Assembly (NCBI GenBank): GCA_965224245.1
Contig: OZ245046.1
Coordinates: forward strand, 4,640,001-4,704,000
Length of the DNA stretch: 64,000 bases
DNA from: Candidatus Eiseniibacteriota bacterium
GTDB lineage: Bacteria; Eisenbacteria; RBG-16-71-46; CAZAMP01
Reading direction: 5' to 3'
The notes under the pieces were generated by a model. That model was given only the letters and a program-made list of their open reading frames with translations, had not been told where the DNA came from and did not search any database. Positions 1-13,499 of this stretch are shown here, piece after piece. Within the stretch, counting starts at the first letter, position 1, and every line of letters begins with the position of its first letter. A program made the position numbers and the translations under genes.

Positions 1-3000
1 CGGGGACCGGCACCGGCGCACCCGGATCGCGCACGAACGCGCTCGACGCGAACACGTCGTCTCCGGCGTCGGCAGCACCTCCCACCCGATCCCCGCCCTC
101 CGGCGACCTCGCCACCGATGCCGGCGCATGGCGCGTGAAGCTCGCGCCGGTCCGGATCCTCGACCTCGAGGTCCGGGGCCGGCACCGGATCCCGATCCCG
201 GATCGCCGGCGCGGACTGCCGCCCGATCCCAACCTCACGGCCCTGCCCGATCCCCTGACCATCGATGCCCGGGGCGTCGAGCTCGTGGGCGACCTCGGCG
301 ACGTCACCCTCACCACGTCGCTCACCGCCGCACGCGGCGGCGAGACGACGCTGGAGATGCGCTGGCCGGCGCCGCCGAGCCGGGTCACGCCGCCGTGGCC
401 GGCGGATCGCGCGATGGACGATCCGGTGTGGGCCGCGTGGCAGTCGCCTCCGACGCCGGGAATCAGGGTCACGGCGCGACTCGACTCGCTGACCCCGGAC
501 GCGACGTTCGACGTGACGGGAACCGCGATCCTGCCCGGCCCGCGCACGTGGGCCTCTCGTCTGCCGGAGAACGCGGCGGTCCTCGATCTGGGCGAGGTGC
601 GCGCGCGCTTCGACGCGCACGGCTCGGCATCGGACCTGGTCGCGCGAATCGACCTCTCCGAGACCGCGTGGATCGATACGCTCTTCGCCGATCTCCGCCG
701 CCAGGACGACCGCGCGGTCCTCGACACGCTGGGGCTCGTCGTCGACGACGTCGCGCTCGGCGCCCGGGGGTCGGTCGTCGGCGAGATCGTGGACGCGACC
801 GCGCGGCTGGATCTCGGCGGGCTCTCGCTGGTACGCCGCCTGGCGCCGGGTCTGCCGGACTCCCTTCACGTCACCGCGCGGAGCGACGTGGCGGTGAGCG
901 GGCCATCGTCGGCGGCCCGTGTGGTCGCAAGCACGCGCGGCAGCGTCCTCGCCGGTCCGCTCCGCGCGCCGGCGCTCACGAGCGACGTCACGATCGAGGG
1001 CGGCCGACTCCGGACCGCGTTGGTGGTCACCGACACCGTGACGTCGATCGGCGACGTCACCGTGGATCGGTTCCGGGCGGCGTACGCCCCGACGCCGGGA
1101 GCGACGTCACCGACGTCCGGCCGGCTTCGCGTCGACGCCAGCGGGCCCGGCGTGTCGGTGACGCACCAGGCCCACATCGACGCGGCCGACACGATCACGA
1201 TCGACGCGGACACGCTCGTGGTCGTGGTCGGCGAGCGCGATCTTCGCGCACGCCGACCGTTCGCGATCCGCGTGAGCCCCGAGGCCGGCATTCTCGAGGT
1301 CGACTCCCTGAGCCTCGAGGGGTCGATGGGCACGATCCGGGCAAACGGTCGCTCGGCGCCCGACTCCACCACGCTGACCGCCCGCGTCGACGTGCGGGTT
1401 CCGGATCGTCCCGAGTGGATCGACGTCCCGGACGGGCTCTGGCCCGGCGGCCTCACGATCACACTCGACGCCCTGGCGGACGGGCTCCTGGCGCTGCGCG
1501 CGAGCCTGACCGGGCTGGCGATCGGGCGCGCCACGCCGCTGGCCCTCTCGGCCGATCTTCGCAACGAGCGCGGAGCGTTCACGGCGGCACTCACCGTCAG
1601 CGACGAATCGACGTCGACCGAGCTCGCCGGCCTGGACGCCTCGATCCCGGCCTCGTTCACGCGCTTCCCGGCCGCGTTCCGCGCCGTGCCCGAGTCGCTG
1701 TCGATCGCGGCGCGGTGGTCCGACTTTCCGCTGCCGATCACGGGCGATCCCGAGCGGCTTCGAGCCGGCTATCTGTCCGGTGCCAGCACCGGCGTGATCC
1801 CGACCGCGACCGGAACGCTCCAGACGATGGACCTCGGCGACACGCCGGAGCTCCGCTTCGACACCACGATCCGGTTCCCCGAGCGAACCGAGCTGGCGCC
1901 CTACACGTTCGTGGCCAGCGCGCGGGTCCTCGGACGTCGCGGCGGGCAGACGATTCCGCTTCGCACGTCGGTGGAGAGCAAGCTCACGCGGGGCGACGCG
2001 ACCGTGTTCGATCTGACGACACGCGTCCAGCACCGTCTGGTCCTCGATGACGCGCGAGGTCCCCGTCCCGTCATCGCCGACTCCGACTCGATCCTCGTGC
2101 ACGTCGTATCCAGCGGCATCCGGCTCTCCGAGCTGGACGCGTTCCTTCCCGACGCCTACGCCCTGGACGGCGCGTTCACGTTCGATCTCGACGTGAACGG
2201 CACCTTCGCGAGGCCCACGTTCGACGGACACTTCGACACCAAGGCGCTGAGCGTGAGACTCCCCGACGGCACGTATGCCACCGTCGTCGGCTCGGCCCGG
2301 CTGACCGGCACCGGGATGGCGCCCCGCCTCGTGGGCTCGCTCGAGGTGAGCAACGCCGTCATCAACATCCCCGCGGAGCAGAGGACCCTTCTGCCCAAGG
2401 ACGGCACCGCGATGCTCTGGGACGAGCAGGCCTTCCGCCTGGCGTTTCACAAGGGACCCGTGGCGACCGCCGGGTTCGGGAACGTCGGTCCAGAGCCCCG
2501 GCGGCTCCCGTCCCCGACGCGCTCACCGCTCGAGCTCCTGCCGAAGGACACGGTCGTGGACGTGGGGGTGCGCTTCCCCGGGCGATTCTGGCTGCGCGGT
2601 CGGGGACTCGACGTCGAGCTGGCGGGAGCGCTTCAGCTCGCGCTCCAGGAGGGCGTGCCCACGGTCGTGGGTGAGCTCGGTCCCACCGGGGGCGTTCTCG
2701 TGGTGCTGGGTCGGACGTTCCAGGTACAGGAAGGCCGCGTGGTGTTCTATGGACAGGACGAGTTCGATCCGACGCTGGACCTGTCGATGACGTCCACGCT
2801 CGACGACGTCGTGGTGACGGTGCACATGGGCGGCACGGTGCTGGAGCCGTCGCTCGAGCTGAGCTCGGTGCCCGAGATGGAGGAGGGCGACATCATGTCG
2901 CTGCTCCTGTTCGGAAAGCGCATCGACGATCTCGACACGGGCCAGACCGCACTCCTGGAGTCACGCGCGCTCGACCTGGCCCAGACGTTCGCGGCGGCGC

Positions 3001-3260
3001 AGGTGGAGCGCGCGATCACGCGTGAGCTCGGCGTGGACCTGGTGCGGGTTCGGCAGAGCGAGGACAGCGGCTCCGCGTCGCTGGTCATCGGCAAGTACCT
3101 GAGCCCGAAGGCGCTCCTCAAGTACGAGCAGGAGATCCTGGAGGGACAGGGCGCGTCGTTGACGCTGGAGTATCAGCTCGCGCGGCGGCTGAAGCTGGCG
3201 ACCTTCCTGAGCCGCTACTTCACGTCGGGCGCCGAGGTGCAGTGGTCGGTCGACTACTGA
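1..3260 (+). CDS. tamB: TamB-like translocation/assembly module protein (DUF490 C-terminus), 5' partial
   Basis: Beta-rich 1041+ aa ORF. C-terminus GRGLDVELAGAL...GRTFQVQEGRVVF...DPTLDL...SSVPEMEEGDIMSLLLFG...LVIGKYLSP...LEYQL...SGAEVQWSVDY is typical of TamB. Frame is open back to the window edge. Confidence 0.85.
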   Translation, partial: GTGTGAPGSRTNALDANTSSPASAAPPTRSPPSGDLATDAGAWRVKLAPVRILDLEVRGRHRIPIPDRRRGLPPDPNLTALPDPLTIDARGVELVGDLGDVTLTTSLTAARGGETTLEMRWPAPPSRVTPPWPADRAMDDPVWAAWQSPPTPGIRVTARLDSLTPDATFDVTGTAILPGPRTWASRLPENAAVLDLGEVRARFDAHGSASDLVARIDLSETAWIDTLFADLRRQDDRAVLDTLGLVVDDVALGARGSVVGEIVDATARLDLGGLSLVRRLAPGLPDSLHVTARSDVAVSGPSSAARVVASTRGSVLAGPLRAPALTSDVTIEGGRLRTALVVTDTVTSIGDVTVDRFRAAYAPTPGATSPTSGRLRVDASGPGVSVTHQAHIDAADTITIDADTLVVVVGERDLRARRPFAIRVSPEAGILEVDSLSLEGSMGTIRANGRSAPDSTTLTARVDVRVPDRPEWIDVPDGLWPGGLTITLDALADGLLALRASLTGLAIGRATPLALSADLRNERGAFTAALTVSDESTSTELAGLDASIPASFTRFPAAFRAVPESLSIAARWSDFPLPITGDPERLRAGYLSGASTGVIPTATGTLQTMDLGDTPELRFDTTIRFPERTELAPYTFVASARVLGRRGGQTIPLRTSVESKLTRGDATVFDLTTRVQHRLVLDDARGPRPVIADSDSILVHVVSSGIRLSELDAFLPDAYALDGAFTFDLDVNGTFARPTFDGHFDTKALSVRLPDGTYATVVGSARLTGTGMAPRLVGSLEVSNAVINIPAEQRTLLPKDGTAMLWDEQAFRLAFHKGPVATAGFGNVGPEPRRLPSPTRSPLELLPKDTVVDVGVRFPGRFWLRGRGLDVELAGALQLALQEGVPTVVGELGPTGGVLVVLGRTFQVQEGRVVFYGQDEFDPTLDLSMTSTLDDVVVTVHMGGTVLEPSLELSSVPEMEEGDIMSLLLFGKRIDDLDTGQTALLESRALDLAQTFAAAQVERAITRELGVDLVRVRQSEDSGSASLVIGKYLSPKALLKYEQEILEGQGASLTLEYQLARRLKLATFLSRYFTSGAEVQWSVDY

Positions 3261-3270
3261 CCCGGCGCGA

Positions 3271-5889
3271 TCAGAACTCGAAGCGAAGGTGCTCGTCGTG
3301 GCCCGCGGCGATCGTGATGGTCCGGATGTCCGGCGTTCCGAGGCGGCCGCCGCGGCTGACGCTGACGACGTGCGTGCCGCAGGGCAGCTCCACGTCGCGC
3401 TGCGGGGTCCGAAGCGCCAGTCCGTCCCGCGTGAGCTCCTCGCCGTCGACCAGGATCAGATCGTTGCCTCCGGACGTGATCGTGATCCGGCCGATGCACC
3501 CGGCGTCGGCGGCGCGTGCATCGTCGGCCGCGCCCGGGTCGATCGTCGCCGCGCCCGGGTCGATCGTCGCAGTGCGCGGGTCGATCGTCGCAGTGCCCGC
3601 GTCACCCCGTGTCGCGTCACCCGCGTCTCCCGGCTCGGACGAACCCGGGTCGTCCGGATCGTCGCGACCGCCGCGAGCGAGCCCGCTTCGATCGCGCTGG
3701 ACGAGCTCGACGTGCTCGGTGTGGACGTCGCCGCGTCGCAGGCGGACCGATTGGGTGTCGGGGACGTACCCCTCGAGGCTGACGCGGATCTCGACCGTCC
3801 CGGACCCCTCGTCGTCCAGCGGAACGTTCGCGTCGCGGACGGGAAGACGCCCCACGTCCTCGCCGTCGACCGACACGAGCGCGCCCGCCGGGCTCCCCTC
3901 GACGGTCAGCGACGCGCCTTCACGCGACAGAACGAGGGGCGGGACGTCGACCGACGCGCCGCGACCGACCTCGACCTCGCGCTCGGTGGTCGCATATCCC
4001 TCCCGGGTCGCGCGGATGGTGTACCGCCCGGTCTTCAGGGTCACGAACGGCGAGGCGGACGAGAGCACGACGTCGGTCTCGACGACGACGACCGTGGCGT
4101 CGGGCGGGTTCAGCTCGGTCAGATGCAGGGTCCCCTTCGCGAAGCCGAAGCTCACGATCGCGTATCCGATCAGCACGAGCACCGCCAGGGCCAGGAACCC
4201 GATCACGACCTTGCGGCCGGAGGCGCCCCCGCCGGCGTCGGGGGCGGCCGGGGTCGGGCTCGGGCTCGCGCTCGGGCGCCGGGGAGGTGACGGCTCCGGT
4301 TTGCGCGGGGGCTCGGAGGCGTCGTCCCTCGGGGGAGGTTTGGACGCCGCGCCACCCGCCGGCCCCTGCGGCGATCCCGTTTGCCCCAGTCGCGTGGCAT
4401 CGTCCGCCGAGGTGGGGCCGGTCGACGACCGGTGCGCCGGTGACGGATCCGACACGTCGCGCGGCGACGAGCCGGTGCGCGAGGGAACCGCACGCTGCGT
4501 GGCGTCGACGTCGTCCCCCGTCGGCGGAGGCGGAGCGGGCGGCGGTGAAGCGGGCGGCGACGGCGGCGGCGGCGGCGACTCCGGTGCGGTCGTTGCGCCC
4601 GAGATCGGACGCATCATGGTGGCGTCGTCGCCGGCCTCGTCGTGCGCGTCGCGACCGGGGGTCTCGCGGCCTCGTGCGATCACCGTCGCGTCATCCGCGG
4701 CATCTCCGACGGGTCGGGCGTCGGCCGGAGAAGGACCCGGGTGCCGTGCGGCCGCGGCGGTTCCGGACGCCTCGATGACGCGCGCCGCACCTTCGGTCAG
4801 CACGGCGCGCAGATCGTGCACGTTCTGTGACGCGAGGATTCGCACCAGCTCGGCCTTCATCTCCAACGCTTCGGGATGTCGCGGATTCAGCTGCAGCACG
4901 GTCGCCAGCACCTGGAGCGCGTCGCGGGCCTTCTGCTCCCCGAGCGCCAGCAGGTTGTGCGCGCGCAGGAGATTGCTCTGGACCTCCTTCTCCGAGAGCG
5001 CGTGGGCGACGCCGTCGGGGTCGGCCGCGAAGCGCGCGAGCAGCTGGCTTCGCCCCGCGATCGCGGCCTGCTCGACGTAGCGATCCAGCCACTGGTGCAC
5101 GGCGGCGGCGTCGCGCGGGCGCGCGTCGGGGTCCTTCGCGAGAAGCTGATGCACGAACTCCGAGAGCTCGCGGCTCACCAGCGGATTGCGTTCGTGGAGC
5201 GCCGCCGGCTGGTCGCGCAGGATCGCCGTTTGCACCGCGGGAACGGTGGATCCCGCGAACGGTCGCTCGCCGGCCAGAAGCTCGTAGGCCACGATGCCGA
5301 ACGCGAAGAGGTCGGCTCGCGGGTCCACGTGTCCGCCGGCGATCTGCTCGGGGGCCATGTAGGCCGGCGTACCCACGGACTGGTTGCCGGTCGACAGCGT
5401 GGACGACGCCTCGCGTGACCTGGCCAGCCCGAAGTCGGCGAGCTTGGCCACGCCCGCCGTGGAGAACATGATGTTGGACGGCTTGACGTCGCGGTGGAGA
5501 ACGCCCTCGGTGTGCGCCGACTCGAGCGCGTCCGCCACGTCGGCGAGCACGAGGAGCGCCACGTCGCGCGGGAGCGGCCGTACCGACTTCAGGACGTCCG
5601 CCAGCGTCGAGCCGTCCACGTACTCCATCGACAGGTACGGCGGATCGTGCTGCCGGGCGAACTCGATGACCTTGACGATGTGCGCGTTGTCGAGGACGGC
5701 GGCCGACCGGGCCTCGAGCTCGAAGCGGGCGAGAAAGTCGGTGTCGTCCGCGAGGTGCGGGTGGATCACTTTGATCGCGCGGCGCGCGCCGAGCGAGAGC
5801 TGCACGCCCTCGTAGACGGTACCCATCGCACCCGACGCGACACGGCGCTTGATGTCGTATCCGGGGATCGTCGGGAATGCTGCCGGCAC
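3271..5889 (-). CDS. Hanks-type Ser/Thr protein kinase with helical (TPR-like) segment, Pro-rich linker, one TM helix and extracytoplasmic PEGA-like domains
   Basis: Kinase motifs GAMGTVY, AIKVI, HRDVKPSNI, DFGLA, GTPAYMAPE, DLFAFG. TM VVIGFLALAVLVLIGYAIVSF. PEGA-like GRYTIRATREGY and SPAGALVSVDG...VSLEGY. Confidence 0.93.
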   Translation of the reverse strand: MPAAFPTIPGYDIKRRVASGAMGTVYEGVQLSLGARRAIKVIHPHLADDTDFLARFELEARSAAVLDNAHIVKVIEFARQHDPPYLSMEYVDGSTLADVLKSVRPLPRDVALLVLADVADALESAHTEGVLHRDVKPSNIMFSTAGVAKLADFGLARSREASSTLSTGNQSVGTPAYMAPEQIAGGHVDPRADLFAFGIVAYELLAGERPFAGSTVPAVQTAILRDQPAALHERNPLVSRELSEFVHQLLAKDPDARPRDAAAVHQWLDRYVEQAAIAGRSQLLARFAADPDGVAHALSEKEVQSNLLRAHNLLALGEQKARDALQVLATVLQLNPRHPEALEMKAELVRILASQNVHDLRAVLTEGAARVIEASGTAAAARHPGPSPADARPVGDAADDATVIARGRETPGRDAHDEAGDDATMMRPISGATTAPESPPPPPSPPASPPPAPPPPTGDDVDATQRAVPSRTGSSPRDVSDPSPAHRSSTGPTSADDATRLGQTGSPQGPAGGAASKPPPRDDASEPPRKPEPSPPRRPSASPSPTPAAPDAGGGASGRKVVIGFLALAVLVLIGYAIVSFGFAKGTLHLTELNPPDATVVVVETDVVLSSASPFVTLKTGRYTIRATREGYATTEREVEVGRGASVDVPPLVLSREGASLTVEGSPAGALVSVDGEDVGRLPVRDANVPLDDEGSGTVEIRVSLEGYVPDTQSVRLRRGDVHTEHVELVQRDRSGLARGGRDDPDDPGSSEPGDAGDATRGDAGTATIDPRTATIDPGAATIDPGAADDARAADAGCIGRITITSGGNDLILVDGEELTRDGLALRTPQRDVELPCGTHVVSVSRGGRLGTPDIRTITIAAGHDEHLRFEF
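3529..3591. repeat. 3 x 21-bp in-frame tandem repeat (ATIDPRT/ATIDPGA) in the kinase extracellular linker
   Basis: cgcgcccgggtcgatcgtcgc twice exactly (3529-3570), then agtgcgcgggtcgatcgtcgc. Confidence 0.9.
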
Positions 5890-6243
5890 GGTATGCGTCC
5901 TCGTGGGGGATCGACCGCGGGCAGACTAGCAGAGCGCCGGCGACGGCGCCACGCGCGTCGGACACCCGGGCCGCGCGTTGCGGATGTCATTGGTAGGCGC
6001 GCGGATACGGTGGGGTGGAGGACCAGGGCTCTTCGAGTTTATCAGTCGTTTTTTAAACGTCTCGATACGCACTTTCGTGCTTCCGCTTCGGCCGGGCCTC
6101 GATGGCCCGCCGCTCGGGCGTGGTGGAAGTGCGCGGGGTCGGTCCGCGTCATGAGGATCACGCCTTTCGCCGCCGTCGGCCGGTGAACTAGACTCGGACG
6201 CGGTTCGAGACCGGCTTCCCCCTCAGCAAGCGATGGATCGGTA

Positions 6244-7191
6244 GTGGTAGAGCAGGCCCTTCCCACGTCGGGATCCCAGCCCGACCCCGATTTCGACACG
6301 CTCCTGACCCGGGCCAAGGCGGGGGATCGGACGGCATGCGACCGCCTCCTGCGCTCGGTCGAACGCGACATGCGGGCCCGGATCGGCGCCCGCATCCAGG
6401 GACGCTCGGACATCGATCGGGACGAGGTCCTCCTCGACGCCCAGGTCTACCTGTTCGAGAAGATCGGCGTGTTCGACCCCGCGATGGGCACGTTCCGCGC
6501 CTTCGCGCTGGGACTCACGAACACGATCATCCGCCGCCTCTGGGACGGCAAGCCCATCGAGAGCCCCGTCTTCCGGACGAAGGACGGCGAGCTCGACGTC
6601 CTCACCGAGCCCGATCCGGGGATGCTCGAGGGACTCGACGAACGCCTGCGATCGGTCGTGGGGGCCGATCACGTCGTCCACGCCGGCGCCCGCGCGACGC
6701 CGGGCGACGTCTTCCTGGAGACGCTGGCGCTGTTCTTCTCCGAGGGCGGCTACCCGCACCAGCAGATCGCGTTCGCGTTCAGTCAGCTCATCTGGGGTCA
6801 ACGCAAGACCGAGCTGAAGGGGGCCAAGACGTCGCGGACGCCTCTCTGGGGGGCGGCGGACCGGGTCGTCAAGGAGGTGTCGGACTGGGCGCTCGAGAAC
6901 GCCAGGGGGGACTTCATCGACGAGCTCGAGGAGACGCTGGGGCTCGACCACGACTTCCTGGACCGGATGTCCGAGCCGATGCGCCGTCGGCTCGAGCTCC
7001 TTGGCCGGGTCCTCTTCGAGAAGGACGCCACCTCGCGCGAGCTGTTCAGGACGCTTCTCGACCGGAGGATCGGCGAGACCCGGCTCTCGGACTACTACGG
7101 CGACGAGCCGACGAAGTCCGTCGCCAACTGGACCCGGCTGGTCAAGAACAAGATTACCAAGGCGTTGGAACGGCAGGAGATCGCCTCTTGA
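6244..7191 (+). CDS. Atypical sigma-70/ECF-like RNA polymerase sigma factor (315 aa)
   Basis: LLTRAKAGDRTACDRLL...DRDEVLLDAQVYLFEKIGVFDPAMGTFRAFALGLTNTIIRR resembles ECF sigma2 (L..A..GD..AF..L; FDP..G.F..W...I). The final helix KSVANWTRLVKNKITKAL resembles the sigma4 recognition helix. Followed by a zinc anti-sigma-like gene. Confidence 0.7.
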   Translation: MVEQALPTSGSQPDPDFDTLLTRAKAGDRTACDRLLRSVERDMRARIGARIQGRSDIDRDEVLLDAQVYLFEKIGVFDPAMGTFRAFALGLTNTIIRRLWDGKPIESPVFRTKDGELDVLTEPDPGMLEGLDERLRSVVGADHVVHAGARATPGDVFLETLALFFSEGGYPHQQIAFAFSQLIWGQRKTELKGAKTSRTPLWGAADRVVKEVSDWALENARGDFIDELEETLGLDHDFLDRMSEPMRRRLELLGRVLFEKDATSRELFRTLLDRRIGETRLSDYYGDEPTKSVANWTRLVKNKITKALERQEIAS

Positions 7192-7345
7192 GCGACCCGG
7201 GATGCCAGACCGGCCGGAAAACGGCCCGACCCCGCCAGAACTCGACGGCGGCGTCGGTAGTCGTCGCGAGTTCAGGAGCCCGCCCGGGCTTCATGGTCAC
7301 GATGACGCCCCCGGCCCGCCGGGGCTCCGATCCAGGACTTTCGCC

Positions 7346-8107
7346 ATGACGCATCCAGGACGAGACACCCTTCTCGCCTTCGTGTCGGGACGCACCGACG
7401 ACGCCGACGCCGAGGCCGTGTACCAGCACATCGCGGAGTGCCCGCGGTGCGAGCGCCGGGTCGACGCGCTTCGCGTCCTCCGGGATCGCTTCGACGAGAG
7501 CTGGTCGTTCTTCGAGAGCGTCCTTGGCGACGTGGCTCTGAGCTTCGAGGAGAAGCGATTTCGCGCGTCGACGAACGCGATCGTGGTGGACTTCAAGGGA
7601 CTGATCGACGCCGGCCGCCGGCTCGCGATCGCGGCGCGCAACACCGTCGCCGACGCGGCCGCCCAGGCCGCCGGTGCGTTCGACGGTCGACTCGCGCCGG
7701 CCTACGGTGGTGTCGGCGACGTTCCCGCCGGGGACCCGGCCACACCTCACGTCGAGCGGGCCGCCGAGCTCATCGGTGCGGCCGACGTGGACGCCGCACG
7801 CGCCGAGCTCGAGACCGCGCACGCGCGCGACCCCAGATCCACCGGCGTCGTCGAGCTGGATCTGACCTGGCACGACGAGGTCTGCGGCAAGCTCGTGGTC
7901 AACGCCCCCCGTCGTCGCCTGTCGGTGCTCGTACACCCGCGCGCCGAGTTCGCGGCGGGCGCGGTGCGTCTTCGCGGTGAGGGCTACGACGAGCATCGCG
8001 CGCTCGAGCCGGTGGAGGGCGCCGCGTATCTCCTCGCGGAGTTCGACGCCGTGCCCGACGGTGCGTTCGACGTGGCGCTGGTCCTGGCCCCGACGGCGAC
8101 CGCGTAG
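7346..8107 (+). CDS. Soluble zf-HC2 (ZAS) anti-sigma-like protein with C-terminal beta-sandwich
   Basis: MTHPGRDTLLAFVSG...YQHIAECPRC matches H...HxxxCxxC. No TM helix. ATG 7346 follows AGGA; an alternative in-frame ATG lies at 7202. Confidence 0.75.
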   Translation: MTHPGRDTLLAFVSGRTDDADAEAVYQHIAECPRCERRVDALRVLRDRFDESWSFFESVLGDVALSFEEKRFRASTNAIVVDFKGLIDAGRRLAIAARNTVADAAAQAAGAFDGRLAPAYGGVGDVPAGDPATPHVERAAELIGAADVDAARAELETAHARDPRSTGVVELDLTWHDEVCGKLVVNAPRRRLSVLVHPRAEFAAGAVRLRGEGYDEHRALEPVEGAAYLLAEFDAVPDGAFDVALVLAPTATA

Positions 8108-8199
8108 CAGTCGCGTCGCGCGCACGGCCGGTCCGCTCGGTCGTGCGCCTCGGCTCGTCCACGCGCATCCCTCGCGCTCCAGGGACGTCCCCTGCACCG

Positions 8200-8208
8200 T
8201 GATATAGT
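8200..8208 (+). promoter_or_regulatory. Extended -10 promoter (TGa-TATAGT), probably leaderless
   Basis: TGATATAGT ends 6 nt before ATG 8215, with no Shine-Dalgarno. Confidence 0.55.
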
Positions 8209-8214
8209 CCCCGG

Positions 8215-9723
8215 ATGCCTTCACGATTTGCCCATCGTGACATCGACTACGAGATCGACTACCACCCGGCCTACTCGTATGCGCTCGACATGGCCGGGCT
8301 ACCGCTGATTCCGTCGATCACCGTCTCGAACCGACGCGCGCACCCGAGCCCGAGGCACGTCGTCTCGTTGTCGGTGCTCGAGCATCCGATCCGGGCCGAG
8401 GCCGTCGTCCCAGAGCTCGACGCCGGCGCGACCGCCACCACGGTGCCGCGCTTCGGCAGCAGCCTCACCGACCACCTCGAGCGCCTCGTTCAACCGATCC
8501 GCAACACCCTGGGCGTCACGATCGACGGCGCGACGGTCGCCGAGCTCCCGTTCCTGGCGCTGGATGCCTGGCGGTGGCCCCACACGCGACGGGCCCGCGC
8601 AGCGTGTGCGGCGTACGTGCTGCCGCACGAGGCCGAGGTCGCCCAGACGGTCGTGGAGGCCGGCGTGTGGCCGATGCATGCGCGCCACGATCCCACGCGC
8701 ACGAGCACGACGACGTTCACGGCGACGGCGACCGGTGATCCCGTGCGCGCGATGACGTCGCTCTATCGAGTCCTTCACACGTCGAACTCGGTCATCTACG
8801 AGATCCCGAAGGTGGAGCGCAGCCCGGAGCTCTCGGTGACGTTCCAGGTCGTGCGCGCACCCCATCTCATCCGGCCGTCGCTGTTCGCCGGACCGTCGCG
8901 CGGGAACTGCTTCGACCTCACCGCGTTCTTCGCCTCGTGCCTGGAGGCGATCGGACACACCCCTCTGATCATCTTCACCGGCGCGCTGGACCAGGCGCCG
9001 ACCCACGCGTTCCTCGGCTGCTGGACCCACGCCGAGCCCCGTCACGTCCCCGTCATCGATCGCAAGGCCGAGCTCCTGCGCGTGGTCGACGCGGGCGAGA
9101 TGGTCATCCTCGAGTGCACCGGCGTGTGTCGCGACCGCCAGTATCGGCTCGAGTTCGATGCCGCCCGCGATCGCGCGCTCGACATCCTGCGGTCGATGTC
9201 GCGCATTCACGCCATCGACGTCGCGACCTGCCGGCCACCGACCGGATCGGTGCGGCCGCTGGAGCTGGCGTTCGAGCCGGTGGTCCGTCGCGCCGTCTGG
9301 GAAGGGGAGCGCTTCCGCGAGCGCATGCGCCAGCGGGCGCTCGAGGGCACTCACCTTTTGTACGGGCTCTGCGCAGCCGGGAGCACCGAGTTCGACGAGA
9401 TCGTGACCGCACTGGGATCGAGCCCCGCGCGCGTGGCGGCGTTCATCGAGGAGTCGACACCGATCGGCGATCACACGGGCGCCCACGCGGTGACCGGCAA
9501 CTATCGCCGGGCGTTCAGCGACGCACGCGAGCGCGCGCGACTGCACGGACGCCGAACCGTCCGTGAGGCGGATCTCATCTGGGGCGTCGCGCGGAGCCAG
9601 TCCGCACGTCTGCACTACATCCTCGAGCAGTCGGGGTTCTCGATCGATGCGCTGCGGAGCGAAATGGCGCTCAGGTACCCCGAGGGCGACGAGACGGAGT
9701 CGATTCACGTTCCACGATCGTGA
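8215..9723 (+). CDS. Transglutaminase/papain-like domain protein fused to a C-terminal Clp-N (Clp repeat) domain
   Basis: GNCFDLTAFFASCLEAIGHTPLIIF...HAFLGCW...ILECT gives a Cys/His/acidic triad candidate. It resembles, from memory, the N-terminal region of DUF4011/DUF3320 helicases. C-terminus FEPVVRRAV...LEGTHLLYGL and TGNYRRAFSDARERARLHGRRTVREADLIWGV are two Clp_N-like repeats. Confidence 0.7.
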   Translation: MPSRFAHRDIDYEIDYHPAYSYALDMAGLPLIPSITVSNRRAHPSPRHVVSLSVLEHPIRAEAVVPELDAGATATTVPRFGSSLTDHLERLVQPIRNTLGVTIDGATVAELPFLALDAWRWPHTRRARAACAAYVLPHEAEVAQTVVEAGVWPMHARHDPTRTSTTTFTATATGDPVRAMTSLYRVLHTSNSVIYEIPKVERSPELSVTFQVVRAPHLIRPSLFAGPSRGNCFDLTAFFASCLEAIGHTPLIIFTGALDQAPTHAFLGCWTHAEPRHVPVIDRKAELLRVVDAGEMVILECTGVCRDRQYRLEFDAARDRALDILRSMSRIHAIDVATCRPPTGSVRPLELAFEPVVRRAVWEGERFRERMRQRALEGTHLLYGLCAAGSTEFDEIVTALGSSPARVAAFIEESTPIGDHTGAHAVTGNYRRAFSDARERARLHGRRTVREADLIWGVARSQSARLHYILEQSGFSIDALRSEMALRYPEGDETESIHVPRS

Positions 9724-9729
9724 ATCGAC

Positions 9730-12195
9730 TCACGGCGACCTCCCCAGCGTCCAGCCCGTCATCTTCCGCATGAAGTCCTGCAGATCCTCGGTGTGGCGGT
9801 TCCGGAACGTCCAGAGCTGCGTTCCGATCCACACGACTCGACCCTGAGGCTCTCCGAAGCTGCGGAACCGGGTCACCACCGGCTCCCGGTCGAGCGACGA
9901 GCCGAAGGTGGTGCCGCACACCTGGGTCACCGAGTCCGACTGCTCATACGCCCACGCGTTCGGAATGAACGTGTACAGCGTGTCCAGTCCCGCGCGCAGG
10001 AGCGGCGGGCTTCCGGTCATCGGCGTCGCGCCGACGTCGCCGAAGCGGTTCCGGGCACCCATCCATCGGTTCGTCCACAGGCCCCGGCGTTCGGGGTCGT
10101 ATCCGGTGGGATCGAACCTCCACGGCAGTCCGAGGGCGATCGCCTTCTCGGTCGGCTCCATGCCCACGATGCCGCTGCACTGCGTGCGGAGGCTCGGAGG
10201 CCCGGCGCGTCCGATGCGATCGAACTGCGTCCGCATCTGCATCACGTCCCACAGGAACGTGCCCGGGCCGAAGTTCGGTGACGGAAACTGCGGCAGCTCC
10301 GGCGTGTAGGGATCCGCCGGATAGAGATCGCCGAGGAGCGAGCCGATGGTCGTCGTTCCCCACACGACGAGTCCCCCACCCGCCCGCACGTAGAGCGAGA
10401 GGAACTTCCCCTGGGGTGCTCCGGGCTCGGGGTCGGTCACGTGGCCCAGGAGGCTGGGGTTGGGGCCCCCTGCGGCGGCGACGTTCCAGAAGAGGAGCTT
10501 GTACCGACTCAGCTCCGAGAGCGTGATCTCGCTCACGGCGTCCGACTCGGCGCACTCGCCCGCGAACACGTGCGCGTCGAAGCGATACAGGGGCTCGCCG
10601 AGCTCTCGATAGGGATCGATCGCGTACTCGAGCATGTTGCCCACGAACACGTCGTGCTCGCAGTCGCGAACCCCGGCCACCTTGTAGTCGTCCACCCACA
10701 GGGCGGTCCGATCGAAGGAGAACGCCACGACGTCCATCACGATCGTCGCGACCACCGTGTGGCTCGGGTCGTGCGTCTCGTCTCGCGCCCGGATGTACAG
10801 CACGTGCTGCTCACCGGCCTGGTCGTCGGTGAACATGATGTCGCCGACGACGCGGTCGTGGTTGCCCCATCCGATCCACCCGCCGCGTCCGTCGTCGGAC
10901 TGGCACACCTCGCACTCGGGATCCTCGATGTCGAGCGCGTAGTTGAGATCCGACACCTCCGAGCCGTAGCTCGCCGCGCTCGCCGTCCACTCGAACTTCA
11001 GCGGCACGTTCGCCGGCACCTCGACCCGCCAGGTGAGTCCCCGACTCACGAACGTGCTCGAGCCGAGGAAGGACTTCTCGGTCACGGTCAACGTCGGCGT
11101 GGATGGATACGACGGATCCGACTGGAACTTGACCACGTTCCCCTCGACTCCCGTCGTGGTGACCACGAGCTCGCGATCGGGTGAGATGGCGCCGGCCTCG
11201 TCCACGGCCCGGATGGCGAAGGCGTACTCACCCGGAGGGACGCTCCGGAGCTGGAGCTGCTCGAACGGATAGGGCTCCCCCGCCTTCGGCCACCAGTCGG
11301 TGGCGAGGTACGTGCTGTCGGTCACGGCATCGGGCTCGGACACGACCTGTTCGTTGGGGATCAAGAGGTTCTCGCGGGCGATCAGGAAGTGCGTGAAGTA
11401 GCGGATCACGAGCGCGTTGTCGTCGAACACCGAGTCGATGGGCACGAGCTTCATCTGGTAGCCGATCGGCTTGTCGTTCGGGTCGGTGCTGTCGTCGTCG
11501 CGACCTTTCCACCGCGTGGTGAGAAACGAGCCGAGCGTGGTGAATCGTTCGAGTCCCTCACCGACCGGGGTCACGAGCTGTGCGGTGGGCGCGATCGTCA
11601 CGGCGTTGAACGAGCGCGAGTCGGGTCTGGAGACGCCCCCCCGGTTGTCGATGGCCCGGATGAAGAACCGGTGCCACTCCGACGCGAGCGGTGGGCTCGT
11701 CGTCCCCGCGATCTCCTCGGCGGCCGACATCACGAACTGGCCCGAGTAGGTCTCGACGCGCTTCCAGAGAGAATCCGCCGCTTCCTGGACGGGGTCGAGT
11801 CCCAGCGCGCGGCAGCTGTCGGCGTCCTGGATGCAGACGACGTCGTCCACACTTACGAGGGCGCCGTCCCGGCCGCGGGCCCGGATCGTGCGCGTGCCCT
11901 CGCACAGACACGTGTCGTCGATCGCGTACTCGAAGTGGCTGATCGTGCCGTCGGCGTCCGACCCGAACCAGTAGAACTCGACCCGGTAGTCGGTGGTCTC
12001 TCCGTTGGCGGTGCCGCCGGTGATCCGCACCGTCGGAGGCTCGTTCGGCTTCAGCTTCGCGTCGTGTGGCTCCCACTCGCAGCCGAGCGCCACCAGCACC
12101 GCGACCGCGGCGCCGATCACGGGCCCGATCGCGACCCGGACGGTGCCCCCGGCGCTCCTTCTCCGCCCCGCCTGGGAGCTCGGGATCGGTCTCAT
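9730..12195 (-). CDS. Large lipoprotein (821 aa): Ig-like N-terminal modules plus a C-terminal alpha/beta (GATase1/ThuA-like) domain
   Basis: ATG at 12195 overlaps the stop of the upstream gene (ATGA). Lipobox-like LVALGC. NEPPTVRITGG...FYWFGSDADGTISHFEYAID and FFIRAIDNRG/FAIRAVDEAG modules. The 5' extension in the ORF track is non-coding-like. Confidence 0.75.
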   Translation of the reverse strand: MRPIPSSQAGRRRSAGGTVRVAIGPVIGAAVAVLVALGCEWEPHDAKLKPNEPPTVRITGGTANGETTDYRVEFYWFGSDADGTISHFEYAIDDTCLCEGTRTIRARGRDGALVSVDDVVCIQDADSCRALGLDPVQEAADSLWKRVETYSGQFVMSAAEEIAGTTSPPLASEWHRFFIRAIDNRGGVSRPDSRSFNAVTIAPTAQLVTPVGEGLERFTTLGSFLTTRWKGRDDDSTDPNDKPIGYQMKLVPIDSVFDDNALVIRYFTHFLIARENLLIPNEQVVSEPDAVTDSTYLATDWWPKAGEPYPFEQLQLRSVPPGEYAFAIRAVDEAGAISPDRELVVTTTGVEGNVVKFQSDPSYPSTPTLTVTEKSFLGSSTFVSRGLTWRVEVPANVPLKFEWTASAASYGSEVSDLNYALDIEDPECEVCQSDDGRGGWIGWGNHDRVVGDIMFTDDQAGEQHVLYIRARDETHDPSHTVVATIVMDVVAFSFDRTALWVDDYKVAGVRDCEHDVFVGNMLEYAIDPYRELGEPLYRFDAHVFAGECAESDAVSEITLSELSRYKLLFWNVAAAGGPNPSLLGHVTDPEPGAPQGKFLSLYVRAGGGLVVWGTTTIGSLLGDLYPADPYTPELPQFPSPNFGPGTFLWDVMQMRTQFDRIGRAGPPSLRTQCSGIVGMEPTEKAIALGLPWRFDPTGYDPERRGLWTNRWMGARNRFGDVGATPMTGSPPLLRAGLDTLYTFIPNAWAYEQSDSVTQVCGTTFGSSLDREPVVTRFRSFGEPQGRVVWIGTQLWTFRNRHTEDLQDFMRKMTGWTLGRSP

Positions 12196-13499
12196 CGGCC
12201 GCGCGACGCCACGTCGATCGCCGTGAAAGGGATCGTGACCGTCCGTCGCCGCCGTGCCATGTAGATGCCCGCGTCGCCGTCGTTCTGGCGGTCCATGATC
12301 TCGACCGTCAGCGTGTGCTCGGCCTCGTCCTCGGTCTGTGCGAAGAAGATCGGGAAGCACATCGGCGTCAGCTCGTCCGGCTCGGCCAGGGTGACGTCGT
12401 CGGTGATGAACTCGAACGGATCCAGGCTCCGGATGTCCTCGTCCACCGCCCAGCGCACGCCGTGCACGCGACCGGTGTGATCGCGGTCGCGGGCCCAGAT
12501 GATTGCGTCGATGGATCCGACCCGGTAGCCGTCCGCCTCCGGCGCGGAGAACTCCATCTCGATGACCTGACCCGGCTGCGGGATGCCTTGGTAGTCCAGG
12601 ACCGAGACGTCGGCCCGATCCCACCCTCCCCAGTAGACCGTCTGGACGGCGCACGGCACCGCCGAGGGGGCCGCGCTCTGCTCGCGGTACACCTTGTACA
12701 GGGTGTCCCGATCGCAAACCCGGAGGCTGTCGCCGAACGAGGCGGCGAGACGATCGCACTGGCGCGTCGGGATGCCGTCCTCGCGAAACACGAACACGGG
12801 ACCCCGGTCGATGTGCACGTCCAGCGTGTCGACGCCGAGCGAATCGTGGACGCCGTCGATGTTCTCCGCCGCGATGACCACGCGCCAGTCGCCCGAGAGC
12901 AACGGTCCCACGACGACGCTGGATCGGTCCTCGGTGAACGAGCACCGCCACAGTCGCGTGGAGCAGGACCCGTCGAGGCTGTTGCAGTCCATGACCATCG
13001 TGTCCAGCGCCCAGCCCAGCTCGGGCGCGTCCTCTTCGTTCACCTCGACGTCGATCTCGATCCACCACTCGGCGAACGGGTTCTCGGGGATGGCCAGCGT
13101 GTCGCGCGCGTCGATGTAGCCCTCGGGCAGACACGCGTTCGAATCGGGCACCGGCATGTTCTGGAGCGAGGGATCCCACGGGGTCACCACCGGGGAGCAG
13201 GGATCGCCGTCGTAGCTTCTGGTGGCCAGACGATAGGCCTTGATGGTGTCGGCGCCGCAGGTCGTCGCGGTCCGGCCGATCCAGAGCCACCGCTCGCGCT
13301 CCGCAGGGTCTACCGGATCGTCGGGATCATCGGGATCGTCCGGGTCGTCGGGGATCTCGTCGGGCACCGGCTCGGTGGCATCGTTGCGGTCGCACCCGGC
13401 TCCGAGCCCGAGCGAGACGAGAACCGTCCCGAGCGCGAGGGCACCGAAGAGCAGGCGCCGGCCGGGGGCGGCATCGTGTCTCATCGTCCTCATCATCAT
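12192..13499 (-). CDS. Acidic, Cys-containing lipoprotein of unknown function
   Basis: Signal peptide RRLLFGALALGTVLVSLGLGAGC followed by a PDD-repeat tether. GGGAGG SD; the true start may be 13493 or 13484. Confidence 0.75.
   Translation of the reverse strand: MMMRTMRHDAAPGRRLLFGALALGTVLVSLGLGAGCDRNDATEPVPDEIPDDPDDPDDPDDPVDPAERERWLWIGRTATTCGADTIKAYRLATRSYDGDPCSPVVTPWDPSLQNMPVPDSNACLPEGYIDARDTLAIPENPFAEWWIEIDVEVNEEDAPELGWALDTMVMDCNSLDGSCSTRLWRCSFTEDRSSVVVGPLLSGDWRVVIAAENIDGVHDSLGVDTLDVHIDRGPVFVFREDGIPTRQCDRLAASFGDSLRVCDRDTLYKVYREQSAAPSAVPCAVQTVYWGGWDRADVSVLDYQGIPQPGQVIEMEFSAPEADGYRVGSIDAIIWARDRDHTGRVHGVRWAVDEDIRSLDPFEFITDDVTLAEPDELTPMCFPIFFAQTEDEAEHTLTVEIMDRQNDGDAGIYMARRRRTVTIPFTAIDVASRGR
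13314..13365. repeat. 9-bp periodic repeat encoding a (PDD)n acidic linker
   Basis: Translation PDEIPDDPDDPDDPDDP directly after the lipobox. Confidence 0.7.

Follow-up and report, generated by a model that had tools for sequence, protein, structure and literature searches.

A conserved trio of genes for an ECF-like sigma factor, a soluble ZAS-type anti-sigma-like protein and a transglutaminase-like protein with a Clp N-domain in Candidatus Eisenbacteria

Pairs of a sigma factor of the extracytoplasmic function (ECF) class and an anti-sigma factor are among the main signalling devices of bacteria. The sigma factor is known to be set free by proteolysis at the membrane, by a redox or conformational change in its anti-sigma, by partner switching, through C-terminal extensions or by being phosphorylated directly. 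A locus in a 64,000-nucleotide stretch of a Candidatus Eiseniibacteriota genome (GenBank assembly GCA_965224245.1, contig OZ245046.1, positions 4,640,001 to 4,704,000 of the forward strand; hereafter the window) carries a putative pair of this kind that is soluble and is accompanied by an enzyme-like protein. Here the gene of a receptor-type Hanks Ser/Thr kinase lies divergent from three co-oriented genes, which encode an ECF-like sigma factor, a ZAS-type anti-sigma-like protein and an enzyme-like protein that we call P4. An earlier interpretation made from the DNA letters (the sequence-only reading) had described this arrangement and had proposed that all four genes belong to one pathway. The placement and orientation hold: the four open reading frames (ORFs) lie at exactly the coordinates it gave, and their pattern of GC content at third codon positions is that of real genes (Table 1). 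Its domain assignments, namely a membrane kinase with PEGA domains, a protein bearing a sigma-2 domain, an HxxxCxxC protein lacking a transmembrane (TM) segment and a Cys-His peptidase-like protein ending in two Clp-N repeats, are likewise borne out by the analyses described below. Its four-gene pathway stands in part: the sigma-like, ZAS-like and P4 genes form a conserved trio, to which the neighbouring PEGA kinase does not belong as a conserved partner.

The trio was delineated by a survey of 206 genomes of the class Candidatus Eisenbacteria, in which one unpublished genome, G083, is counted among the negatives only. A profile of the sigma-like family gave full-length matches in 10 of the 206 (the window genome G000, G006, G020, G021, G027 with two copies, G033, G041, G053, G064 and G101), the match in G101 being weaker (8.3e-27); in the other class genomes the profile reaches only the sigma-2 part of ordinary ECF sigma factors. 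P4-type matches were confined to these 10 genomes and occurred in every one of them, the other 196 being empty. This count leaves out the other matches of the P4 profile, namely the N-domains of Clp ATPases (~870 aa), reached in many genomes, and N-domain-only proteins built otherwise. In G053 the P4-type match is a C-terminal fragment at a contig edge, and in G041 P4 lies on a separate contig, the contig with the sigma-ZAS pair stopping 1.2 kb after the ZAS gene. A ZAS-like gene stands directly 3' of the sigma-like gene in all 14 loci inspected (the match in L050 is weak, E 2.7e-5), and P4 is within the same locus in 11 of the 14. The three loci lacking P4 are short contigs: L061 and L048 start either with the sigma-like gene itself or ~0.5 kb before it, and L049 ends ~1.2 kb past the ZAS gene. 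Conservation of the gene neighbourhood, which the sequence-only reading had suggested as a check, is found for these three genes. Word-indexed homologue searches with P4 and with the sigma-like protein recovered nothing beyond the query in either case; a full HMMER search with P4 gave 495 relatives at E≤1e-3, 83 of them at E≤1e-30.

The three genes stay together in several different orders. Sigma-ZAS-P4 is the order in the window and in L050, and P4-sigma-ZAS that in L012; in L011 a permease gene on the opposite strand separates P4 from the sigma-ZAS pair, in L013 and L047 four genes lie between sigma-ZAS and P4, and in L014-L016 a P4-like gene precedes the sigma and ZAS genes while a second P4-like gene lies on the other strand. 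Two metagenome-assembled genomes (MAGs) labelled Alphaproteobacteria have the order sigma-ZAS-P4, with an FHA domain on P4, a sigma factor that passes Sigma70_r2 (29.1 vs 24; homologue in L057) and a ZAS protein that passes zf-HC2 (25 vs 22.2). A metagenome scan added one locus only, a sigma-ZAS pair on a 3.4-kb contig. With perfect co-occurrence in the class, and adjacency in varied orders and under a second phylum label, the sigma / anti-sigma / P4 trio is a conserved module, and we consider it highly probable that its three genes work together. In L014-L016 a second ZAS-like gene comes after the second P4-like gene, beside a kinase operon and with the sigma gene missing (Table 1); this arrangement pairs P4 with the anti-sigma and not with the sigma factor. 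Two further candidates were rejected. The protein P0028, which could be taken for a P4-sigma fusion, is better explained by a read-through or frameshift, its linker being of low complexity and its Clp-N region truncated, so that it attests adjacency only; and a 1896-aa ORF beside P4 in L012, considered as a homologue of the Prometheus protein ProA, is a pyruvate:ferredoxin oxidoreductase.

The sigma-like protein is of the ECF type and has a normal sigma-2 domain. The window copy itself has no Pfam match at E≤0.1, a sequence search of the PDB was empty, and its NCBIfam sigma matches are weak (residues 15-82, E 7.7e-4), the best scoring 19.3 bits, under the cut-off of 267. At the level of the family, Sigma70_r2 is matched by eight of the 11 members (best E 4.5e-10; the window copy is not among the eight), and the family profile matches ordinary ECF sigma factors at E 1e-13 to 1e-20. 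An AlphaFold model built from these 11 sequences has a mean pLDDT of 76, with the sigma-2 and C-terminal domains mostly above 80 and a disordered linker at about residues 101-150. Residues 13-104 of the model match the sigma-2 domains of AlgU (8z6g; Z 12.0, 87 residues aligned at a root-mean-square deviation (rmsd) of 2.5), SigC (Z 11.4), SigK (11.3) and SigW (11.2), and the top rows of a Foldseek search are nearly all sigma factors, at weak E-values.

The C-terminal part of the model is unusual in that known sigma-4 structures cover it in a split range, residues 148-315, with Z-scores of 5.6-6.6 (2h27, Z 6.5, 69 of 69 residues, rmsd 2.6; 3vep, Z 5.9; 5fgm, Z 5.7; 2o8x, Z 5.6). The motif GGYPHQQIAF, which is invariant or nearly so and forms the signature of the family, bears on how this range should be read: in a profile alignment its GGYPHQQIA pairs with LGFTHQEIA of an ordinary ECF sigma factor. 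If GGYPHQQIAF is thus the first helix of the sigma-4 helix-turn-helix, then the last helix of the protein, residues 289-309, would be the recognition helix. Between the two lies an insertion (residues 184-288) whose conserved residues include L217, R249, F258, D261 and Y284. On the model we suggest, with moderate confidence, that the sigma-4 helix-turn-helix is split by this insertion of ~105 residues, which raises the question of how a DNA-binding domain so interrupted reads a promoter.

The ZAS-like protein carries the sequence HIAECPRC from residue 27 (H27-x3-C31-x2-C34, nt 7427-7450) and matches zf-HC2 at 22.3 bits, just over the cut-off of 22.2. No 19-residue window rises above 1.6 on the Kyte-Doolittle scale, so the protein is predicted to have no TM segment; nor do the sigma-like protein and P4 have a membrane segment. 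An N-terminal zf-HC2 / anti-sigma domain is followed by a linker with a conserved GVGD motif and then by a conserved C-terminal domain. NCBIfam gives weak matches to TIGR03988 and TIGR02451, the RsrA and ChrR models (E 3.9e-3 and 6.2e-4, respectively). Adjacency of the two genes in all 14 loci suggests that the ZAS protein may bind and inhibit the sigma factor.

The P4 gene spans positions 8215-9723 on the forward strand and encodes 502 aa. A sequence search of the PDB was empty for this protein also, and its domains become visible in a structure model made from 71 sequences (pLDDT 93.5, pTM 0.91). Residues 1-118 resemble Ig-like sandwiches (Z ~8). Residues 124-336 have transglutaminase-like matches, 3kd4 (Z 9.8), TglA (9crn; 8.3) and PeiW (8jx4; 8.0), and over about residues 124-345 there are further matches to a transglutaminase (4xz7; 7.8), factor XIII (4kty; 7.3), PNGase (2f4o; 7.2) and 3isr (7.2). 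Protein Atlas matches, which score 0.77, are leads at most. Across the 71 sequences Q211, C232 and H264 never vary, and conservation at E300 and T302 is 90% or more; in 149 sequences this level is still reached by Q, C, D, H and T (the counterpart of T302), the E300 column reaching it only in the 71- and 82-sequence alignments. In the model a helix carries C232 at its N-terminus, and adjacent strands have H264 and E300 on or beside them, which is the geometry expected of the transglutaminase-like superfamily, with Q211, C232, H264 and E300 as putative catalytic residues. The invariance of Q, C and H argues for catalysis by P4.

The C-terminal residues 351-490 of P4 adopt in the model the eight-helix fold of a Clp N-domain (3pxg, Z 18.0; many others, Z 15-17.6), and Foldseek matches them to the ClpC1 N-domain (E 1.1e-5, TM 0.80; TM range 0.77-0.83). 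Among the best 82 of the 495 relatives, searched at E≤1e-3, Pfam Clp_N is found on 21. The N-terminal part of P4 has a homologue of another kind: residues 21-352 (8275-9270 in the window) match positions 1-315 of the 1903 positions of the ProA model NF058533 (E 1.9e-22), at 78.6 bits against a cut-off of 1500. The P4-like N-terminal domain also occurs elsewhere. The same genome encodes at G000:C1:3616844-3618976 (L009, 1174-3306, minus strand) a 710-aa protein with such a domain (profile 44-306, E 1.7e-31) and a weak CHAT/caspase match (E 5.7e-5); the gene after it encodes a DUF7379 alpha/beta-hydrolase-like protein. In other genomes the domain is found in ORFs of 800-1983 aa, the longest of which, in the class genome G051, carries a P4-like/ProA N-terminal domain.

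A tie between the module and phospho-signalling had been part of the sequence-only reading, and the relatives of the module provide it. FHA is found on 27 of the 82 P4 relatives and the Yop-YscD_cpl model on 29 (the same best 82 of 495). Three P4-like proteins are fused to a kinase domain: P0048 (Pkinase-TPR-FHA), P0117 (Pkinase-TPR-TPR-S, also with RyR) and P0123 (Pkinase-TPR-TPR-S). In L060 an FHA-P4 gene is convergent with a kinase gene. The four genes between ZAS and P4 in L013 and L047 form an operon, whose products are one TPR-CsgG-like and one OMP-like protein, a Hanks kinase and one CsgG-like protein, and in L014-L016 the same operon lies alongside the module. From these comparisons the predicted link of the module to Ser/Thr phosphorylation is solid at the level of the family. 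The window genome has an orthologue of the kinase operon at G000:C1:1539199-1544921 (L062), 3.1 Mb away from the trio; its Hanks kinase (1541692-1543911) has a CARDB domain, and its other products are TPR-CsgG-like, OMP-beta-barrel-like and CsgG-like. The kinase that lies beside the module in the window is of another build: a Pkinase domain at residues 11-264 (E 2.8e-49, 168.3 bits against a cut-off of 31.7), a Pro-rich linker, a single hydrophobic/TM segment at about 555-588, and an extracytoplasmic part with PEGA / CarboxypepD_reg-like domains, PEGA matching over 660-731 in two stretches (E 9.9e-15).

What might the trio do? In the mechanism that we propose, the soluble ZAS-type anti-sigma would hold the ECF-type sigma factor inactive. 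P4 would dock on the anti-sigma through its Clp-N or beta-sandwich surfaces, the docking side of the anti-sigma being its conserved linker or C-terminal domain, and the active site of P4 would then cleave or covalently modify the anti-sigma, releasing the sigma factor. Ser/Thr phosphorylation by a Hanks kinase would be the trigger, and the sigma-4 insertion might be an alternative target of P4. We infer the binding of sigma to anti-sigma, the action of P4 on the anti-sigma, its catalysis and substrate, the activating direction and the kinase that feeds this copy. We regard the chances as evenly balanced that 6244-9723 is a self-contained cytoplasmic switch made of a sigma factor, a ZAS protein and a dedicated enzyme, P4, that releases the sigma factor by way of the anti-sigma. 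If so, this would be a new mechanism of sigma release, in which a soluble anti-sigma has an obligatory dedicated Cys-His enzyme, and Hanks-kinase signalling would be joined to sigma control through a protease-like intermediary. We entertain more tentatively the fuller proposal that a phospho-gated cytoplasmic transglutaminase-fold enzyme with a Clp N-domain cuts or modifies the soluble anti-sigma, or the plug in sigma-4, and so constitutes a third route of ECF activation. Such a third-route module would be present in at least two phylum labels, and its enzyme domain would be common to the N-terminus of a Prometheus defence protein.

A prediction of the complex bears on the contact between P4 and the anti-sigma. 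ZAS, residues 150-315 of the sigma factor and P4 were modelled together, P4 being the scored partner. In the calibration, 58 of 80 solved complexes and two of 110 mismatched pairs reached the mark; passing scores no higher than 0.60 were obtained for only seven of the 80 solved complexes and for both of the mismatches that pass. The prediction for the module, made from custom alignments and with three chains, unlike the calibration, scored 0.46, and the best of three controls 0.01; at least 67% of the contacts recur between its runs, and the pLDDT of the partner is 79 or more. When the ZAS chain was replaced and the sigma fragment kept, the score fell to 0.01, which points to ZAS as the contacted chain.

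Several results weigh against the proposed mechanism or parts of it. None of the 11 members of the sigma-like family matches Pfam Sigma70_r4, and sigma-4 is visible in the predicted structure only, at modest Z-scores, and in one profile alignment; the sigma-4 assignment is for the former reason held with no more than the confidence given above, and DNA binding stays putative. A search for a bipartite promoter motif upstream of the sigma-like genes gave a pair common to at most four of 13 sequences, compared with three to five in shuffles. The HxxxCxxC motif is kept in seven of 10 ZAS homologues and lost in three, and only four of the 10 match zf-HC2. The window P4 has no Pfam match at E≤0.1, neither to the transglutaminase families nor to Clp_N, and a Pfam transglutaminase family is matched by none of its 82 best relatives. 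Transglutaminase-fold enzymes may also cross-link, deamidate or acylate, and 'protease' is therefore not an established name for P4. A score of 0.46 in the complex prediction is weak support in view of the calibration. Finally, the kinase next to the module is not orthologous to those linked to it elsewhere, ranking 15th to 73rd among the ~90-100 kinase matches to them in this genome; two complete loci, L011 and L012, have no kinase within ~9 kb; and because the window P4 lacks FHA, its own link to phosphorylation comes from its neighbourhood only. Together with the distant position of the kinase operon, these last points lead us to view three genes as the core of the module and its kinase input as variable.

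That view bears directly on the adjacent PEGA kinase, which could instead be the dedicated sensor of the module, an envelope signal causing it to phosphorylate ZAS, P4 or the sigma factor. Its gene is divergent and only 354 bp away, it has the topology of a receptor with extracytoplasmic PEGA domains, and the module family is linked to phosphorylation. However, the 6.94-Mb genome has ~99 Hanks-type Pkinase matches over the Pfam cut-off, mostly in ORFs of 800-1400 aa, so that a kinase within 5 kb is expected by chance in ~15-20% of cases; no PEGA-type orthologue stands beside the module in any other locus; and the low rank of this kinase and the orthologue of the conserved operon 3.1 Mb away tell the same way. 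We thus consider a dedicated PEGA sensor somewhat unlikely, and as input to this copy the kinase at G000:C1:1541692-1543911 is at least as likely. The direction of control might also be reversed, P4 being an output or accessory whose expression is governed by the sigma/anti-sigma pair and which acts on other cellular or foreign proteins picked by its Clp-N domain. Co-occurrence and adjacency would suit a member of the regulon as well as a regulator, and P4-like N-terminal domains occur in quite different proteins, such as the 710-aa protein and the ORFs of 800-1983 aa mentioned above. We nevertheless judge P4 unlikely to be an output, since P4-like genes pair with a ZAS-like gene even when the sigma gene is missing, FHA domains and kinase fusions put P4 on the input side of signalling, and the weak signal in the complex prediction depended on the ZAS chain.

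Two other explanations concern the nature of P4 itself. The TPR-S repeat is a sensor repeat of conflict systems, and some relatives of P4 are fused to Pkinase-TPR-TPR-S-RyR; together with the match to ProA this would suit a biological-conflict (anti-phage or abortive) system in which P4 acts as a peptidase, either sensor or effector, and an immune programme is driven by the sigma factor. Passages of two papers on conflict systems do describe transglutaminase-like peptidases and ECF sigma factors in them (PMC7159879, PMC8195603). Against this, PADLOC matches none of the sigma, ZAS and P4 proteins, the neighbours in the window are TamB and lipoprotein genes and no defence genes, and the ProA score is far under the cut-off, with the helicase and nuclease parts missing; we give a conflict system little credence. 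We find it least probable that P4 is a non-catalytic anti-anti-sigma or adaptor, which would sequester ZAS or pass it to a Clp protease through Clp-N. Clp N-domains are indeed docking modules for adaptors and substrates, with solved complexes of MecA, ClpS and YjbA, but the conservation of Q, C and H argues for catalysis, and a Clp ATPase gene is absent from the window locus.

The features of the locus are collected in Table 1. Between the kinase and the sigma-like gene (5890-6243) a scan for terminators and for consensus promoters of the sigma-70 type found no site. The first module gene is preceded by the 11-nt string CCGGCTTCCCC both in the window (6205-6225) and in L012, where this gene is P4; in DNA this GC-rich, its recurrence could be due to chance. 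At the low-coordinate side of the locus a TamB-like gene (3-3260, forward strand; TamB domain, E 3.5e-46) runs off the start of the window. On the other side two lipoprotein genes, 9730-12195 and 12192-13499 on the minus strand, are convergent with the module; the stop of one overlaps the start of the other, and their products have lipobox-like N-termini and no Pfam match. A 1186-aa ORF at 9730-13290 (minus strand), considered as a module gene, was rejected as a composite of these two genes in different frames.

Table 1. Coordinates of the module, its parts and its kinase neighbour in the window, and of the second P4-like/ZAS-like pairs in three other loci.
Feature	Coordinates	Strand	Size or basis
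Receptor-type Hanks Ser/Thr kinase	3271..5889	-	872 aa; neighbour of the module here, not a conserved partner
Divergent intergenic region between kinase and sigma-like gene	5890..6243	.	354 bp
ECF-like sigma factor	6244..7191	+	315 aa
Sigma-2 domain (residues 13-104)	6280..6555	+	structure matches of the model and family profile
First half of putative sigma-4 (residues 153-183), containing GGYPHQQIAF	6700..6792	+	motif conservation, alignment with ECF sigma factors, sigma-4 structures
Predicted helical insertion of ~105 residues (184-288) within the sigma-4 helix-turn-helix	6793..7107	+	model and alignment
Putative sigma-4 recognition helix (residues 289-309, W296 invariant)	7108..7170	+	alignment with sigma-4 structures
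Soluble ZAS-type anti-sigma-like protein	7349..8107	+	252 aa
P4 N-terminal beta-sandwich (residues 1-118)	8215..8568	+	predicted model; Ig-like matches
P4 transglutaminase-like thiol-peptidase domain (residues 124-336), predicted	8584..9222	+	fold matches, conserved residues
C-terminal Clp N-domain of P4, made of two four-helix repeats (residues 351-490)	9265..9684	+	fold matches
Second P4-like/ZAS-like pairs	L014 8498-10549, L015 6667-9070, L016 6994-9213	-	

The sequence-only reading could not place this combination in any named ECF group. Full-text literature searches, in which the ECF classification is represented by main-text passages, likewise returned no published description of the sigma/ZAS/P4 trio, which is probably, as far as we could find, an undescribed variant of sigma/anti-sigma control. 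Its closest parallels on the anti-sigma side are RsrA-SigR and ChrR-SigE, with which it shares a cytoplasmic anti-sigma with an N-terminal HxxxCxxC domain, encoded directly after an ECF-type sigma factor. In contrast to these, the window ZAS protein scores far under the cut-offs of TIGR03988 and TIGR02451 and carries in addition a conserved linker and a conserved C-terminal domain, the zinc/redox motif is dispensable in three of 10 homologues, and a third, enzyme-like partner gene is obligatory. In regulated proteolysis, RseA is cut by DegS, RseP and ClpXP and RsiW by PrsW; both are membrane anti-sigmas, and the proteases at the membrane are serine or metallo proteases. The proposed logic of the module would be the same, a protease removing the anti-sigma and thereby freeing an ECF sigma factor, whereas all its parts are soluble and the candidate is a transglutaminase-fold Cys-His enzyme with a Clp N-domain of its own.

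A Ser/Thr kinase near an ECF-type sigma factor is also found in the ECF groups that depend on Hanks kinases (EcfK/PknS), as described in PMC7826278 and PMC13147305. In the former's main-text passages, ECF43, ECF59-62, ECF217, ECF267 and ECF283 typically have no anti-sigma and the kinase phosphorylates the sigma factor directly, and these passages contain no mention of transglutaminase or FHA. Here, by contrast, all 14 loci have an anti-sigma, conservation does not extend to the PEGA kinase, and the link to phosphorylation would run through the FHA domain of P4 or its kinase fusions.

For P4 itself the nearest known folds are those of thiol peptidases (3kd4, the pseudomurein endoisopeptidases PeiW/PeiP, and TglA), which share with it the fold, at Z 7.2-9.8, a Cys at the N-terminus of a helix and a His on a strand. 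LapG-type BTLCPs are also among the transglutaminase-like thiol peptidases. P4 differs from the thiol peptidases in its added beta-sandwich and Clp N-domain, in being cytoplasmic and linked to a sigma/anti-sigma pair, and in the lack of a Pfam transglutaminase match. Prometheus ProA is described, in passages of PMC13700489, as a helicase/nuclease of ~1900 aa with DUF4011 as its N-terminal region. Compared with its layout of DUF4011, DNA2-like helicase-nuclease and DUF3320, P4 shares the N-terminal region and lacks the rest; since the model of P4 is confident and the two are homologous, the N-terminal ProA/DUF4011 region is implied to be a beta-sandwich followed by a transglutaminase-like fold, which provides a structural hypothesis for DUF4011. 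At its other end P4 has the double four-helix fold of Clp/Hsp100 N-domains and of proteins made of such a domain alone (ClpC1 N-terminal domain, ClpC2, ClpT), with Z-scores of 15-18 and TM scores of 0.77-0.83. In P4, unlike in Clp/Hsp100 proteins, a thiol-peptidase-like domain takes the place of the AAA+ unfoldase next to this N-domain.

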